NCBI GenBank assembly: GCA_963764165.1
Contig: CAVXRD010000001.1
Span: 224,001-288,000 of the forward strand
Direction: 5' to 3'
DNA: 64,000 nucleotides
Source of the DNA: an uncultured Verrucomicrobiae bacterium
GTDB lineage: Bacteria > Verrucomicrobiota > Verrucomicrobiia > Limisphaerales > Palsa-1400
Shown here: positions 16,445 through 61,368 of the stretch, in pieces
Position numbering within the stretch: the first letter of the stretch is position 1
How the letters are laid out: each line of letters starts with the position of its first letter
Notes under the pieces: model-generated
The model's database searches: none
Seen by the model: the letters and a program-made list of their open reading frames with translations, nothing else
Told to the model about the DNA's origin: nothing
Program-made: the position numbers and the translations under genes

Positions 16445-17214
16445 GTCGAGTAGAGTGGAGGCGCGAGCGGTTTAGGTCAAAGGCTTCCGTTGTATCCGCC
16501 CTTTCGGGTTTCGTGGCAAATAGCCCCCAGACCGTGCTCTCGTTTCCTCCACCCCCTCTGAAACTCCGTACGGCGGGTTTTCCCCAGTACCGGCTTCAAA
16601 CGGGCTGTCAGCAGCGACCTTCGCGGCTCGCGCCGCTTATACGCTGCCACAGTGGAGATCTCGTCCGTTCGCGTTATTCCGTAGTCGGGCTTGCGCCCGG
16701 CGGCACTCGCGGCTTCTGACACCACACACCCGCCCAGTGGCCCTTGGCTCCGCCAGCGGTTGTTCTGTCCGCCGACCTCATCGCTTACTATGGCCACATC
16801 CGAGTCTCTGCCTCTCCGCTCCGGCTTATGCATTATTCCCGAAGCGTTCAAAGGGGCAGAGAGTCCCCAATTTACTCTGCGTGTCTTTCAGACGTGTCGC
16901 ACTCCTTACCCCGGCGGCTTTCCGGGTGCCTTTGACTGCTTCTTCCCCGGAAATACATGCCTTCGCCATCCTCCTGAGAGGCTCGGCGCCGCGATCCCCT
17001 GCTTTTCGGAACAGCAGGGTGGCCTAACGAGGCTGCAAGTTTCACTTTATGTTACGACCCGTTCTTTTGTTGGCGCGGCTCCGCCCGCGCGTTTACGACC
17101 CAGCTCTCATCCCGCCAGATCGCTCCGCGGGACGTGGGTTATCGCTAAGCGGGTAACAGTCCATTCCCGCTGCCGGACTTTCACCAGCCAGACACACAGC
17201 ATTATGGGCTGCGC
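16445..17214 (-). ncRNA. ORF-less group II intron (~770 nt)
   Basis: 5' GCGCAGCCC...GGTGAAAGTCC; DV-like GAAGCCGGTACTGGGGAAAACCCGCCGTACGGAGTTTC; extended DVI ending CTACTCGAC; short DIV with no RT ORF. EBS1 (16971-16976) and EBS2 (16989-16999) are complementary to the 5' exon (17215-17231). Confidence 0.88.
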
Positions 17215-17448
17215 CAGGAGAGGGACCGCAGACGGACAAAGGCCGGTGGTAATCCAGTCAGAGCGGCGATTTCGCACTTGTTTGGGTACCGGCGAGAAGG
17301 TGCGCACCCAAGGGCGTTTGCAATCTGAAGTGTCCAACGCTACGTCGCGCAAACAAAATATGAACCAAAAGAAGCGGCGGATTGGCGCAACAACTGCGTT
17401 TATTGACGCGCGGCTTGGCGGTTGCAAGCCAGGTTGCCTCTGTGCTTC

Positions 17449-17724
17449 AGAGTGTGCTTTAAAAATCCGAGGGGTTCTGCGGCGAGGGATTTTGGCCGCA
17501 AGCGAGGCGGCGAGGCACGAGAATCCCCGCAGCGGGCTTTGAGTGCCGAGCCAACGAAGGCTGCGGACAAAAGAACCGCCGCCCAATGGGTTTTCGCGCA
17601 AAAGACCCTCTGGCTTCGTTGCGCCTCAGTCACAGCCCCGCTTGGGGATGCTCCTTCGTTGCGCCTCGCCATAGGTTCCTGTGCGTAAAAAAACAGAGAC
17701 CCTCGGATTTTTAAGGCACACTCT
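17449..17724. mobile_element. 276-bp MITE
   Basis: 25-bp terminal inverted repeats AGAGTGTGCTTTAAAAATCCGAGGG / CCCTCGGATTTTTAAGGCACACTCT with 1 mismatch; no transposase. Confidence 0.8.
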
Positions 17725-17961
17725 TGAGCGCCGCACGGCGCGGGCGATTGCTTGCCCCGTCACGATCCGCCGTCGCCTAGCTATGGCGGGACAAGCCCTC
17801 AATCAATCGCTCTTTTTCCGTTGCGTCCGGGTGGTTTCGCCCGCAGAATCGGCACTGTAGCTGGCGACCGGGAGCAAAGCGGGCCAAGGGCGGCTAACGG
17901 CGGCAAAAGCCGGATTTGAGCTACATTCTGGCTACATACTTCGTAAGTGCCTCATTCTCAA

Positions 17962-26278: not shown

Positions 26279-26308
26279 AATTCAATGGGGTGAATGGAGC
26301 CTCAACCC

Positions 26309-26334
26309 GGACGCCTCGGCGAGGCGTCCCTACC
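26309..26334. repeat. GTAG-family REP
   Basis: GGACGCCTCGGCGAGGCGTCCCTACC; related copies at 37877-38046 (interrupted), 40016-40117 and 46455-46532. Confidence 0.85.
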
Positions 26335-26342
26335 TTGGGACA

Positions 26343-28343: not shown

Positions 28344-28707
28344 ATATAATCTCCAAAAAGGGGCAACATCCGCTACACTGTTGATTATAAGACATTTAAG
28401 GGGCAACACTTGCCGCTACAGAGCCGCTACAGACCCGCTACATTTCTTCCGAGATGGCAAAGCGCAAATAGTGAGGACACGCGCCTTGTGGCGAAAACCA
28501 AGGGTGCAATAGGGTGCAATAGCGAGCAATGCCCCAATCACGATTTATTTAGTCGCCCTTCCCGCCCGCTCGTTAAAAAACAACCGCTCCCTGGCGTCGG
28601 AATCCGCAAACTGTCAAAGAACACGCCCTGACGGCGGCAGGTGGGAACATAAGGCCGAAAAGTCCCCTTTGTCAATTAAGACAGGAATTGCACGCTTCTG
28701 TGGTATT
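28344..28707 (-). other. Dispersed non-coding element, copy A (promoter + boxA + phased repeats + IHF-like site)
   Basis: Block-wise homology to 58962-59405, including an identical 34-mer ATATAATCTCCAAAAAGGGGCAACATCCGCTACA. Confidence 0.85.
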
Positions 28708-37889: not shown

Positions 37890-38029
37890 GAGATTGTCTC
37901 AAAACTACAAAATCCTCAAAGTGTGTCAATACTACTAATCTCTCATTTGCGATATGGCGCATTTTTATTTTCGGCGAGGGTGTTTTGGTGGTGCTTTTTG
38001 AAGCCGTTTTTGAGTTTTGAGACAGACTC
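37890..38029. mobile_element. 140-bp MITE inserted into a REP loop, with 4-bp target duplication GGCG
   Basis: TIRs GAGATTGTCTCAAAACT / AGTTTTGAGACAGACTC; GGCG at 37886-37889 and 38030-38033. Removal restores the exact REP. Confidence 0.88.
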
Positions 38030-38073
38030 GGCGAGGCGTCCCTACCTTTTACCCACTTCCAATCACACTCCTC

Positions 38074-39924: not shown

Positions 39925-40015
39925 AGAGGCGATGGTGCTCGATGCGCAGCCAAATGAACAGTAGGCAAACTGCTTATAGTATGTTTGTCAGGCAGCATCG
40001 CATTCTCGTGGCAAA

Positions 40016-40117
40016 GGTGGGGACGCCTCGCCAAGGCGTCCGGTTGCGTGGGATTTATTCCACGGTCTTCGGATGAGCAGCGCCTCGCCCCGGACGCCTC
40101 GGCGAGGCGTCCCTACC
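40016..40117. repeat. REP doublet (REPIN)
   Basis: Two inverted GGACGCCTCG..AGGCGTCC REPs. Confidence 0.8.
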
Positions 40118-40174
40118 TTCAAACCGAAAAGATTGATGCGGGGCATTCCGGTGGTAATATGAGCGTCAAGGGTC

Positions 40175-46454: not shown

Positions 46455-46532
46455 GTAGAGATGCCTCGCCCAGACTTCCGCCTGCGCGTGAATGACGCTT
46501 CACCGCGGACGCCTCGGCAAGGTGTCCCTACC
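46455..46532. repeat. Degenerate REP doublet
   Basis: GTAGAGATGCCTCGCC...GGACGCCTCGGCAAGGTGTCCCTACC. Confidence 0.65.
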
Positions 46533-46582
46533 ATTAATGACGTTTATACAAATCCGAATGCGCCCGGTGTCTCTACTGATGG

Positions 46583-58001: not shown

Positions 58002-58078
58002 CGCAAACTATCTGACGCCTATTTGACATTCAACCTTCAACAAAATTTTGCCACGGCGCAAAGCGGCCGGAAAAAGTT

Positions 58079-58269
58079 AATCAGGAACGCCCGAACTCAG
58101 GAAAAGAGGCCGTGGATCATTTCTTGATGAAATTATTTTCCACGCGACAGCGCAAAATCTAATCCGACTGGCGAAAATCTGGAGGAAAGTTTCGGCTGAG
58201 GCGCACGAATCCAAGGCGCGCCCCGCAACCAAGATTAGTCTCTTTTCCTGAGTTCGGGCGTTCCTGATT
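58079..58269. repeat. Perfect 30-bp inverted repeat around a 131-bp spacer (MITE-like)
   Basis: AATCAGGAACGCCCGAACTCAGGAAAAGAG at 58079-58108 and its reverse complement at 58240-58269. Confidence 0.85.
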
Positions 58270-58368
58270 CAATTTTTCAGCCCAGGTCCCCTTCGGACAA
58301 ACGCTGTCGACTCCGCCGTTTTATTCTGGCAAATAGCAGGGATTGTCTTTCAAAGCCGCGGTTTGTTC

Positions 58369-58961: not shown

Positions 58962-59405
58962 ATATAATCTCCAAAAAGGGGCAACATCCGCTACATCATT
59001 GATTATCAGGCGTTTAAGGGGCAACAAAAATGGCAACAAGGTGGCAACAAACCCGCAACATTTTCGGAACACAAGGGGATTTCTACACCAAGGAAACAAA
59101 AGGGCACGAAGAATTCTGTCGCGCACGCCATTGATTTTGGGAGCGCAACCATCCGCAGATATTGGGCGATGGCGACGAGATTTTTGCCGTGAAAACCAAG
59201 GGTGCAATAGGGTGAAATAGCGTGCAATGCCCCGATCACGACCTATTTAACCCCTGTGCCTGATGGCCCGTTAAAAACAACTGCATCGCTGCCGCGGAAA
59301 TCCGCAAAATATCAAAGAACACGCCTCGGGGGGCGACAGGGAGAAAAATAAGGCCGAAAATCCCTTGCGTCAAATAAGATTGTAATTGCACTCTTACGTG
59401 GTATT
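58962..59405 (-). other. Dispersed non-coding element, copy B
   Basis: Same ordered blocks as 28344-28707, with a longer unrelated central spacer. Confidence 0.85.
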
Positions 59406-59698
59406 TCGTGGCATGACAAACGAAACATCGATTGCTCAGGGGGGACTGGAAGCAAAAACATCGCCGGGGGCGCCCGGGGGCAGGAGTGTTGCGGGCGGAC
59501 GGGCCGCGCTCGCATGAGCAAGATTGCGCTGCTATTCCACTGAAAACAGCGCCCCCACCATCGCACGATTACGCATTTTTCTTTGATTCATCGCCGCGAC
59601 TTGCGATAAGAATGGAATGGCAACGGACAACAACACCAAATCCTCCGGCGATTCGGGCAACATGGCCGAGACAAAGCCGCCATTCAGTTAGCTGTCGC

Positions 59699-60502
59699 AT
59701 GGAGGTTCTGCAACTTACCGCCACGCAATTCATCAAGCCGATGTCAACGGGGAGAAACCGTCCACTCTTGCTTGGATGTGAGGACAACGCTGCCAACTCC
59801 TTTGAAGTGGTGGTAAAATTTCGTGGCAGAGAAATGGACGCGAGGGCGCAGATTGCAGAGTTGGTTACAGCGCAACTGGCCGACGACTTGGGATTGCAAG
59901 TTCCGCAAGCGGTCGTGGTGGACGTCCCAGCCGGATTCGAAGCCATCTTCGCCGAAAAAGAATTGGCAGAGATGGTGAGAATGAGCCCCGGATTAAATTT
60001 CGGTTCCGTAAACATTGGTGCGGGCTTCACGACATGGCCACCCGGGCGCAATCCCGTTGGCATGCAACGGGATCAGGCAGCGGATGTATTCGCCTTCGAC
60101 ACGCTCATCCAGAATCCCGACCGACGCGCATCGAATCCAAATTTGTGGGCACGATCGGACAAAATCGGCGTCTACGATCACGAGCAGGCCTTTTCGTTTC
60201 TAGCTCTGCCGATTATTGGCGGCGCGGCCAAGCCGTGGGAGGCGGCGACATTGGCCAAGACCTTCCAATTTTTGGAACAGCATCTATTTTACCGGAGCCT
60301 GCGCGGCGGTCGATTGAATTTCGGCCCATTCATGGAAAATTTGGGCAAGATTACAGACGGACAACTGCAAGGATATTTCGACATGGTTCCGCCCGCCTGG
60401 AAATGCCAAGGCGATTTATGCGAGCAAATCGTTGCATATTTGTCTGAGGCTCGCAATCACAGGGAAACTTTGATACAGTTCATTAAACACTTGCTACGAT
60501 GA
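59699..60502 (+). CDS. HipA-family (HipA_2-like) Ser/Thr kinase
   Basis: GRNRP, VVKF, AELV...LGL, FDTLIQNPDRRASNPN, YDHEQAF. Confidence 0.85.
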   Translation: MEVLQLTATQFIKPMSTGRNRPLLLGCEDNAANSFEVVVKFRGREMDARAQIAELVTAQLADDLGLQVPQAVVVDVPAGFEAIFAEKELAEMVRMSPGLNFGSVNIGAGFTTWPPGRNPVGMQRDQAADVFAFDTLIQNPDRRASNPNLWARSDKIGVYDHEQAFSFLALPIIGGAAKPWEAATLAKTFQFLEQHLFYRSLRGGRLNFGPFMENLGKITDGQLQGYFDMVPPAWKCQGDLCEQIVAYLSEARNHRETLIQFIKHLLR

Positions 60503-61368
60503 AAACAAATTATAGCACCATCATCCTGCGTTACGTTCACGATGTGGTGACCGGCGAGTTTGCCAACATTGGAGTGGTGCTCTATGCGCCTGACCAGCGG
60601 TTTTTGGAGGCGCGCTTCACCGCCTCGTACGAACGGCTCAACGCCATCTTTCTCAAGATCGATCATCTGCATTTCCGCGCGTTGATGCGTTACATGACCC
60701 ATCGGTTCGAGGAATTGGGCGCGGAAATCCGCAACGAATTGCATATTCCCCCGGTAAATGCCTTGTCGGAAATTGTCAAAAAGGTTTTGCCGCCGGACGA
60801 TAGTTCGCTCCAATGGTCGCAGCAAGGCGGCGGCATCACCGAGGACCCGGCGCGCGTGTTGGGCGAAACATATAAACGATTAGTCGAGCGCTTTGTCGCG
60901 GGCGCAACACAAGTGAGCCGCAGCGATGAGGAGGTCGCCAAACCTTTTAAGGCCAAGCTGGGCAAGATGGTCGATAAGCTTTCGGAGAAGACGATCAAGA
61001 CAAAGGACTACCAATACGATTTCCAATTCGCGTGGAAAAATGACGTTTGGCATCTCTACGAGCCCGTTTCATTTGATTTGGTTGACCCAAACAGCATCCG
61101 GGAAAAAGCAAATCGCTGGCTTGGCCGCGGCGTGGCGCTGCACGATGCGGAAGAGAGCTTTAAAATTCATTTCATCCTCGGCGAACCACGCCAGGAAGGC
61201 ACGAAGGCGGCGTTTGAGAATGCACTGCATTTGCTGCAAAAGATTCCAAGCCAGAAACATCTAGTCCGCGAAAACGAGGTGGACAGCTTTGCGGAACGTG
61301 TCTCGGAAGAGATCACAGCCCACGATGCCGAGGCACTTCCATTACGCGACAAAGCAAAACAGACATGA
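60499..61368 (+). CDS. DUF3037 domain protein
   Basis: YSTIILRYVHDVVTGEFANIGVVL; start overlaps the kinase stop (ATGA). Confidence 0.85.
   Translation: MKTNYSTIILRYVHDVVTGEFANIGVVLYAPDQRFLEARFTASYERLNAIFLKIDHLHFRALMRYMTHRFEELGAEIRNELHIPPVNALSEIVKKVLPPDDSSLQWSQQGGGITEDPARVLGETYKRLVERFVAGATQVSRSDEEVAKPFKAKLGKMVDKLSEKTIKTKDYQYDFQFAWKNDVWHLYEPVSFDLVDPNSIREKANRWLGRGVALHDAEESFKIHFILGEPRQEGTKAAFENALHLLQKIPSQKHLVRENEVDSFAERVSEEITAHDAEALPLRDKAKQT

Follow-up and report, generated by a model that had tools for sequence, protein, structure and literature searches.

Promoter-boxA cassettes that lead into candidate terminase docking arrays in a verrucomicrobial genome

Nus factors and boxA bring about antitermination in rRNA operons, in lambdoid phages, at CRISPR arrays and on a few mRNAs. 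Dispersed repeats, some of them promoter-bearing, make up the Correia elements and the REP and MITE families. The boxA machinery (NusB, NusE, NusA and NusG together with SuhB) acts in rrn leaders and also at CRISPR arrays and suhB (PMC13753749, PMC12360218, 10.1101/091223). The rrn leaders of B. subtilis are described as opening with a small hairpin followed by a boxA that NusB binds (PMC13753749). In gammaproteobacteria boxA regulates protein genes, with a count per genome of 0-7 boxA sites that lie no more than 50 bp from a start codon (10.1101/091223). As for phage packaging, in Mu-like phages it begins with a cut in host DNA past the phage end (PMC5557969), the TerS of PICIs pairs with the TerL of a helper and packages from pseudo-pac sites (PMC9006064), and T7 RNA polymerase recruits terminase (PMC4281155).

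The cassette described here is built from parts of known kinds and, by the features tested, its sequence places it outside the rrn leader, the CRISPR leader, the PICI and the mini-Mu; we class it by its architecture. Like an rrn leader, it combines a predicted promoter, a small 5' hairpin and a boxA equal to the rrn boxA of its lineage, but no rRNA, CRISPR array or ORF follows the boxA, which always leads into a 10-bp array. Its 50 copies in one genome contrast with the 0-7 boxA sites per gammaproteobacterial genome, a count that is defined differently (10.1101/091223). Like the Correia, REP and MITE families, it is a multi-copy intergenic repeat with promoters; unlike them, it has no terminal inverted repeats that we could see, its promoter faces inward to a fixed array, and it derives from a protein-coding cassette. 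With PICIs and SaPIs (PMC9006064) it shares a small-terminase-like gene outside a phage, candidate chromosomal sites and a proposed helper large terminase, but it lacks the integrase, repressor and primase-helicase operon, its protein is of the Mu gp27 type and its sites carry a promoter and boxA. With a Mu-like phage end or mini-Mu it shares a gp27 family gene and related 10-bp arrays, which in several Verrucomicrobia-type phages lie just inside one end; it differs in that no conserved end-type site follows the array, the phage loci are without boxA and the array is of another sequence subtype. Such cassettes were not found described in the literature searched, which lacked most subscription journals; DUF3486 turned up there in one paper, on a halovirus genome, and DUF3631 likewise in one.

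Copies A and B and the family they belong to

Two copies, A and B, lie in the window, the whole 64,000-nt stretch of DNA analysed here. A first-pass annotation had placed a promoter, a hairpin and a boxA on the minus strand of both copies, and all of these were recovered at the positions it gave. The features are as follows.

28691..28707, strand not assigned: copy A, conserved CAC-N6-GTG dyad that overlaps the extended -10 box of a predicted back-to-back plus-strand promoter whose -35 box is degenerate
28646..28675, minus strand: copy A, sigma70-type promoter (TTGACA 28675-28670, 18-nt spacer, TATGTT 28651-28646), predicted transcription start near 28640
28624..28636, minus strand: copy A, hairpin CGCC-N5-GGCG with a 4-bp stem
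28611..28624, minus strand: copy A, boxA, GTGTTCTTTGACAG, identical to the genome's pre-23S boxA at 12 of 13 bases
28486..28548, minus strand: copy A, module M2, a candidate terminase docking array with a T-run and three 10-bp repeats in phase (28530-28501)
28344..28445, minus strand: copy A, module M3, AT-rich segment flanked by octamer repeats
59413..59534, plus strand: copy B, frameshifted 5' remnant of a gp27-like (small-terminase-like) gene
59380..59407, plus strand: copy B, predicted back-to-back promoter, TTGTAA-16-TATTTC as read from the sequence, containing the CAC-N6-GTG dyad and ending 5 nt ahead of the remnant's ATG
59345..59373, minus strand: copy B, sigma70-type promoter (TTGACG 59373-59368, 17 nt, TATTTT 59350-59345), predicted transcription start near 59339
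59322..59335, minus strand: copy B, hairpin CGCC-N6-GGCG with a 4-bp stem
59309..59322, minus strand: copy B, boxA, GTGTTCTTTGATAT
59184..59246, minus strand: copy B, module M2, 10-bp repeats at 59228-59199
58962..59063, minus strand: copy B, module M3, shared with copy A

The two copies have two repeat blocks in common (222 nt at 72% and 102 nt at 80%), and the cassette splits into three modules: M1 (promoter, hairpin and boxA), M2 (three 10-bp repeats) and M3 (octamer repeats flanking an AT-rich segment), the last being optional in the family. The absence of rRNA and CRISPR downstream, also claimed at first pass, is borne out. At the gathering score, Rfam matches in the window are two tRNAs and a group II intron fragment, with no rRNA and nothing near copies A and B. 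Neither a CRISPR-like array among the window's repeat families nor a CRISPR family in Rfam was found; unlike a CRISPR repeat-spacer array, the array after boxA is made of head-to-tail 10-bp repeats without spacers. The intron fragment (D1-D4, 17047-17190) lies beside a 36-bp inverted repeat pair and a tRNA-Gly (window 16691-17729). REP- or MITE-like families occur at window positions 26288-26336, 38027-38048, 40014-40119, 46486-46534 and 58065-58283, and one of them often adjoins the M3 end.

A lone promoter-like match is weak evidence, 0.7 being expected by chance per region; the M1 family, in contrast, is beyond chance. Iterated profiles, that for M1 being built from copies A and B, gave at E<=0.01 in the 7.0-Mb genome 52 matches for M1 (50 strong), 86 for M2 and 125 for M3. 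TTGAC is present in 49 of the 50 copies and is followed in all 50 by a TAnnnT box 16-18 nt behind it. The word GTTCTTTGA is exact in 46 copies, one base off in two and missing in two; these 46 account for 46 of the 106 genome occurrences of the 9-mer, and boxA lies 22-24 nt past the -10 box in 46 of 48 copies.

The -35 and -10 boxes, hairpin stem and boxA are strongly conserved relative to spacer and loop. Across the 48 copies with boxA, parsimony requires three steps over the 14 columns of the -35 pentamer and boxA as against 180 over 21 spacer and loop columns, and private changes number 3/672 and 106/1008, respectively; the -10 box, as the anchor, was not scored here, and well-conserved copies are the ones that profile searches tend to pick up. 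The inner three pairs of the hairpin are intact in 42-47 of 48 copies and the loop is free, with six steps in six stem columns versus 42 in five loop columns. Overall, M1 copies have a mean pairwise identity of 76%.

The family is confined to this genome in the searches made. BLAST with M1 found nothing in four congeners and a 29-nt match in one of 40 relatives, and an exact 23-letter module pattern returned six unrelated matches from a species-genome collection, outside the group where named. No replication-strand bias of the copies was found (29/50), nor a one-sided compositional mark at their flanks (2 of 25 unadjusted tests at p<0.05).

boxA, the arrays and the neighbouring genes

Comparison with the genome's own rrn boxA was a check set beforehand, and it identified the cassette boxA as the boxA of the lineage. 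The single rrn operon, on contig C2, carries TGTTCTTTGACA directly ahead of the 23S gene and a second boxA site earlier in the spacer, and its 16S leader has a hairpin and then ATGATCATTGAAA. In 31 family genomes searched, GTTCTTTGACAAC stands 80-103 nt upstream of 23S in all six rrn loci found. NusB and Rho families are encoded in the genome, which has two genes with a Rho RNA-binding domain (G000:C1:1050169 and C2:2563522). Nine predicted tRNA genes are clustered at G000:C2:1559019-1561230; several of their anticodons duplicate ones present elsewhere and one was read as a stop anticodon.

The boxA-like word might instead be a DNA-binding site, either a LexA half-site or an IHF-like site. It contains TGTTC, which we take to be the left half of the Verrucomicrobia LexA motif TGTTC-N4-GAACA, and its reverse complement begins in a way that presumably corresponds to the IHF consensus. 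We consider this very improbable: no right LexA half-site is present, so that the palindrome with its free spacer is missing, and the central TTT is invariant where that spacer would be free. Moreover, the word precedes 23S in six of six rrn loci, and in the cassette it follows a predicted start and a hairpin, as is described for the rrn leaders of B. subtilis (PMC13753749). Taken as read from sequence, M1 is likely to be a working promoter with a boxA.

M2 lies downstream of M1 on the same strand in 50 of 50 copies (profile matches at E<=0.01), at a distance of 23-828 nt except in one copy, where 1989 nt separate the two across an insertion. Several of these spacers contain other repeat families. 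No conservation extends beyond the M2 tail, and no conserved end-type site follows the array in the cassettes. The first-pass proposal of an antiterminated non-coding RNA stands in part. It is borne out that the motif is the boxA of the lineage, that promoter boxes and boxA are constrained and that NusB and Rho families are present; a conserved RNA of 300-400 nt is doubtful because the distance from M1 to the next block varies so widely and the spacers carry other repeats. The predicted transcript is not C-rich (12 of 50), which weakens the need for Rho protection and led us to reject a model in which the array loads Rho.

A short hairpin-boxA-repeat transcript could itself be the product, a decoy that would bind NusB/NusE or else some repeat-binding protein. 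The conserved stem with its free loop would fit, as would the occurrence of different hairpin sequences in the same place in three other organisms and the constant position of the array on the transcribed strand. We regard this as unlikely, given that the copies in the genome show hardly any compensatory change (one T-A for C-G), that the spacer is free in length and content, and that the element has no Rfam match and, in copies A and B, no terminator-like site closing it.

Of the 50 clusters with the promoter module, 30 include M3, which has roughly 125 matches genome-wide and stands alone in 48 clusters. In two copies it starts where a DUF3631 gene has its stop codon; these stand-alone genes (G000:C4:314824-316266 and G000:C2:1440563-1442015), with M3 immediately after the stop, are separate from the promoter module, as are the DUF3631 genes of this genome generally. 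By eye, with no profile match, M3 resembles arrays at the 3' end of six of 11 DUF3631 loci elsewhere, and 72 gp27-like loci contained no DUF3631 match. To judge from these sequences, M3 was borrowed separately. At G000:C2:17114-17432 and about 15 other sites there is a 320-bp unit with an M3 variant, near-identical between sites (93-98%), which suggests that it spread recently without coding sequence. Nine clusters have M3 followed on the same strand by a second M2 subtype, without the promoter module (G000:C2:213623-214132, C2:381696-382207, C2:940551-941054 and others).

Could the cassette be a selfish non-coding mobile unit, in which promoter, boxA and arrays serve its own copying through an RNA intermediate or through transcription-activated initiation at M2 or M3? 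Constraint would then reflect selection on active parents alone. Its restriction to one genome, its ragged left ends, the co-orientation of modules in 58 of 59 mixed clusters and the placement of M3 after DUF3631 stop codons, like the 3'-end arrays of such genes elsewhere, all agree with such a unit. We nevertheless judge it rather unlikely. Even private changes avoid the boxes, though nearest neighbours differ at a median of 13 of 97 columns; with 50 of 52 matches strong, decayed copies do not form a tail; the 82 flanking proteins scanned include no recurring transposase, integrase or reverse transcriptase; and terminal conservation after M2 is lacking.

M1 does not serve the neighbouring genes. 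Called with a purpose-built codon model, the downstream gene is in the sense orientation in 29 of 50 copies, against an expected fraction of 0.607 from gap geometry (p=0.77). Roles suggested at first pass toward rpoN, downstream of copy A, and against the FUSC gene, antisense to copy B, find no support. rpoN has its own promoter-like site at 27880-27853, kept in four of four congeners; all four are without the element and have another gene upstream of rpoN where copy A sits. For FUSC, the orientation of downstream genes across the 50 copies is random. A clean empty site was not found, the congeners carrying other genes upstream of rpoN and the FUSC homologues, present in two of four congeners, being too distant (36-43% identity). 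A cargo model was rejected, since the divergent neighbours include housekeeping as well as accessory genes. Toxin-antitoxin or defence-like genes are among the neighbours, namely a HipA-like kinase and DUF3037 at copy B and HicB and PIN elsewhere; the HipA-like kinase and DUF3037 pair (window 59432-61368) comes straight after the broken start of the gp27-like gene in copy B and shares its strand.

A portable antiterminated promoter, retained for driving neighbouring host genes, is accordingly improbable. The 29 copies that face a sense gene would suit it, as would the regulation of gammaproteobacterial protein genes by boxA (10.1101/091223), but neighbour orientation equals chance and rpoN retains its own promoter-like site. 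Where the next gene is antisense, 20 copies carry 21 mismatches, versus 21 in the 28 others (with stem columns slightly offset), so the boxes are about equally kept.

The divergent gp27-like gene and Mu-like phages

In seven copies a divergent gp27-like ORF starts 11-12 nt from M1; three of these encode 369 aa and the others are shortened or broken. Intact copies thus stand back to back with M1, and the first codons of the gene are kept in 29 of 50 copies, copy B included (null 64/5000). The 369-aa protein (G000:C4:77602-78711), predicted to be mainly helical, matches the terminase small subunit family phrog_426 at E 4.5e-8 and Pfam Mu gp27 at E 2e-5 with 25.4 bits, below the curated cut-off of 28 bits. 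Foldseek against PDB and viral libraries returned nothing at E<=0.001 (best DUF3486 row: probability 0.97, E 0.083), and the Atlas neighbours of the protein include a cluster with PF11985 on 17% of its members. Verrucomicrobia are the most frequent phylum among these neighbours, and from this too the host looks verrucomicrobial. With a dN/dS of about 0.2 (0.15-0.32 in 14 of 15 pairs), the gp27-like protein shows purifying selection. Of 151 sampled genomes of the order, 20 have homologues, often multicopy and often broken, which stand among ordinary chromosomal genes. A second gp27-like subfamily has a conserved upstream palindrome instead of M1 (loci L044, L117, L128, L137 and L140; G000:C1:1236158 and C2:1192498).

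Gene, promoter, a different hairpin, boxA and 10-bp array stand in the same order in three metagenome loci out of 44, with protein identities of 71, 56 and 47%; their profile E values are 1e-16, 0.027 and 0.68, the last two being judged by eye. The module is missing from the other 41, many of which have little upstream DNA, from all congener loci examined and, in the order and genus, from the DNA ahead of distant gp27-like genes. Of 201 genomes of the order, 128 contain a 14-letter boxA pattern, which was counted 42 times in this genome and 7-13 times in six others (reversed control 0-1 in those genomes). We examined 60 boxA sites in nine other genomes, chosen for high counts or kinship. Of the 56 with enough DNA, 27 have 10-bp arrays after boxA, compared with 2/52 upstream and 26/644 intergenic controls. 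None of the 60 loci has a gp27-like gene within the DNA fetched around it, and several are without an obvious promoter directly before boxA. Arrays with a 10-bp period follow chromosomal gp27-like genes in 31 of 58 cases. In a sister genus (L148-L177; G011, G017, G022 and G176) each genome has 15-24 boxA matches; many of them are preceded by a promoter whose spacer holds a CCCA-N6/7-TGGG dyad, and have behind them 10-bp arrays that surround AT-rich segments. A dyad like this one forms the left half of M1.

Among viral contigs the 369-aa protein has no close relative, but distant alignment recovered gp27-like homologues in 62. In phage contig L233 the homologue directly precedes the large terminase and portal, and 14 of the 62 viral loci were matched by this genome's terminase or portal queries. 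By eye, in several Mu-like phages no gene follows the portal, and a phased array is placed between the terminus and inner end-type repeats, a position that we take to be the place of pac in Mu. In 4 of 54 phage loci (8 of the 62 were too short and left out) a matrix derived from chromosomal arrays scored at least 10 bits at a point 3.6-5 kb past the gene, against 0/54 on the other strand and 0/52 control loci. At a post-hoc cut of at least 7 bits it matched 10 of 20 loci with end-type repeats (two of them duplicates) versus 2 of 34 without, the controls giving 4/54 on the other strand and 1/52. A cruder phage-end test gave 3/32, with 27 of 62 loci missed through rigid ORF rules and three more dropped at contig ends. 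Of this genome's M2 arrays, only one of 50 reached 10 bits with the chromosomal-array matrix, and the M2 profile does not find phage ends; what ties M2 to phage ends is its period and polarity, its linkage to the gene and, by eye, a likeness to L254, L280 and L283. None of the 62 phage loci contains boxA, and 45 phage records show no enrichment of it (7 versus 6 in the control), so the leader was not inherited from those phages.

A Mu-like prophage is resident at about G000:C4:316500-352000, with transposase, MuB, Gam, large terminase, portal, capsid and inverted end-type repeats, and a DUF3631 gene with its M3 array lies directly to its left. Its large terminase closely resembles the ones encoded behind gp27-like genes in L228 and L282; the gene in its small-terminase position has no profile-detectable similarity to the gp27-like protein, and its end motif was not found at the cassettes. 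Nor do the cassettes have the phage ends, with transposase sites and terminal dinucleotides, that would mark a mini-Mu, and without any integrase family among the 82 flanking proteins they do not form a PICI island. Another large terminase gene, at G000:C2:560783-564279, has a few phage-type genes before it and no portal or capsid that we could find after it.

Transcription into a putative packaging site

Our preferred reading, which we put forward tentatively, is that M1 provides Nus-protected transcription into a terminase docking (pac-like) array that is used with the large terminase of a helper phage. Both back-to-back promoters would fire. boxA would load NusB/NusE, rendering the polymerase Rho-resistant over an untranslated spacer of 23-828 nt until it reaches M2. 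The gp27-like protein made by the few intact copies would bind the arrays of all copies in trans and there recruit the large terminase of a helper Mu-like phage, and the DNA beside the array would be packaged and transduced. That the array is the site of the gp27-like protein we hold at an even chance. Transcription would enter the array from the same side in phages, in gene-then-array cassettes and in the inverted form with M1. In phages and in the gene-then-array cassettes, the commoner cassette form, packaging-gene transcription would run into the array, and M1 may stand in for this read-through of the packaging operon where the gene has been turned round or lost.

The same anatomy would serve a defence in which arrays and orphan protein soak up or misdirect phage terminase and the arrays stay accessible through antiterminated transcription. 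With fifty or more sites titration would work well, the gp27-like protein is kept by selection and some neighbours are toxin-antitoxin or defence-like. On the other hand, housekeeping genes are neighbours equally often, most copies of the gp27-like gene are broken, and a sink does not require a fixed polarity of promoter into array, so we think this decoy unlikely.

Fifty selected boxA leaders without a gene, tied to a repeat array of the packaging family, would be a new use of Nus and boxA. If the arrays are packaging sites as in our preferred reading, the positions and direction of host DNA transduction would be predictable, and many orphan DUF3486/gp27-like genes would be given a role. A wider proposal, conceivable but doubtful at present, is packaging on the scale of the chromosome, in which orphan Mu-type small terminases and dozens of gene-less docking arrays redirect the terminases of Mu-like phages, whether resident or infecting, to host DNA. 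Were this true, each array would be licensed by an rRNA-style antiterminated promoter and host DNA would be packaged from many fixed sites, a dispersed, transcription-gated form of gene transfer with neither an island nor a dedicated gene transfer agent.
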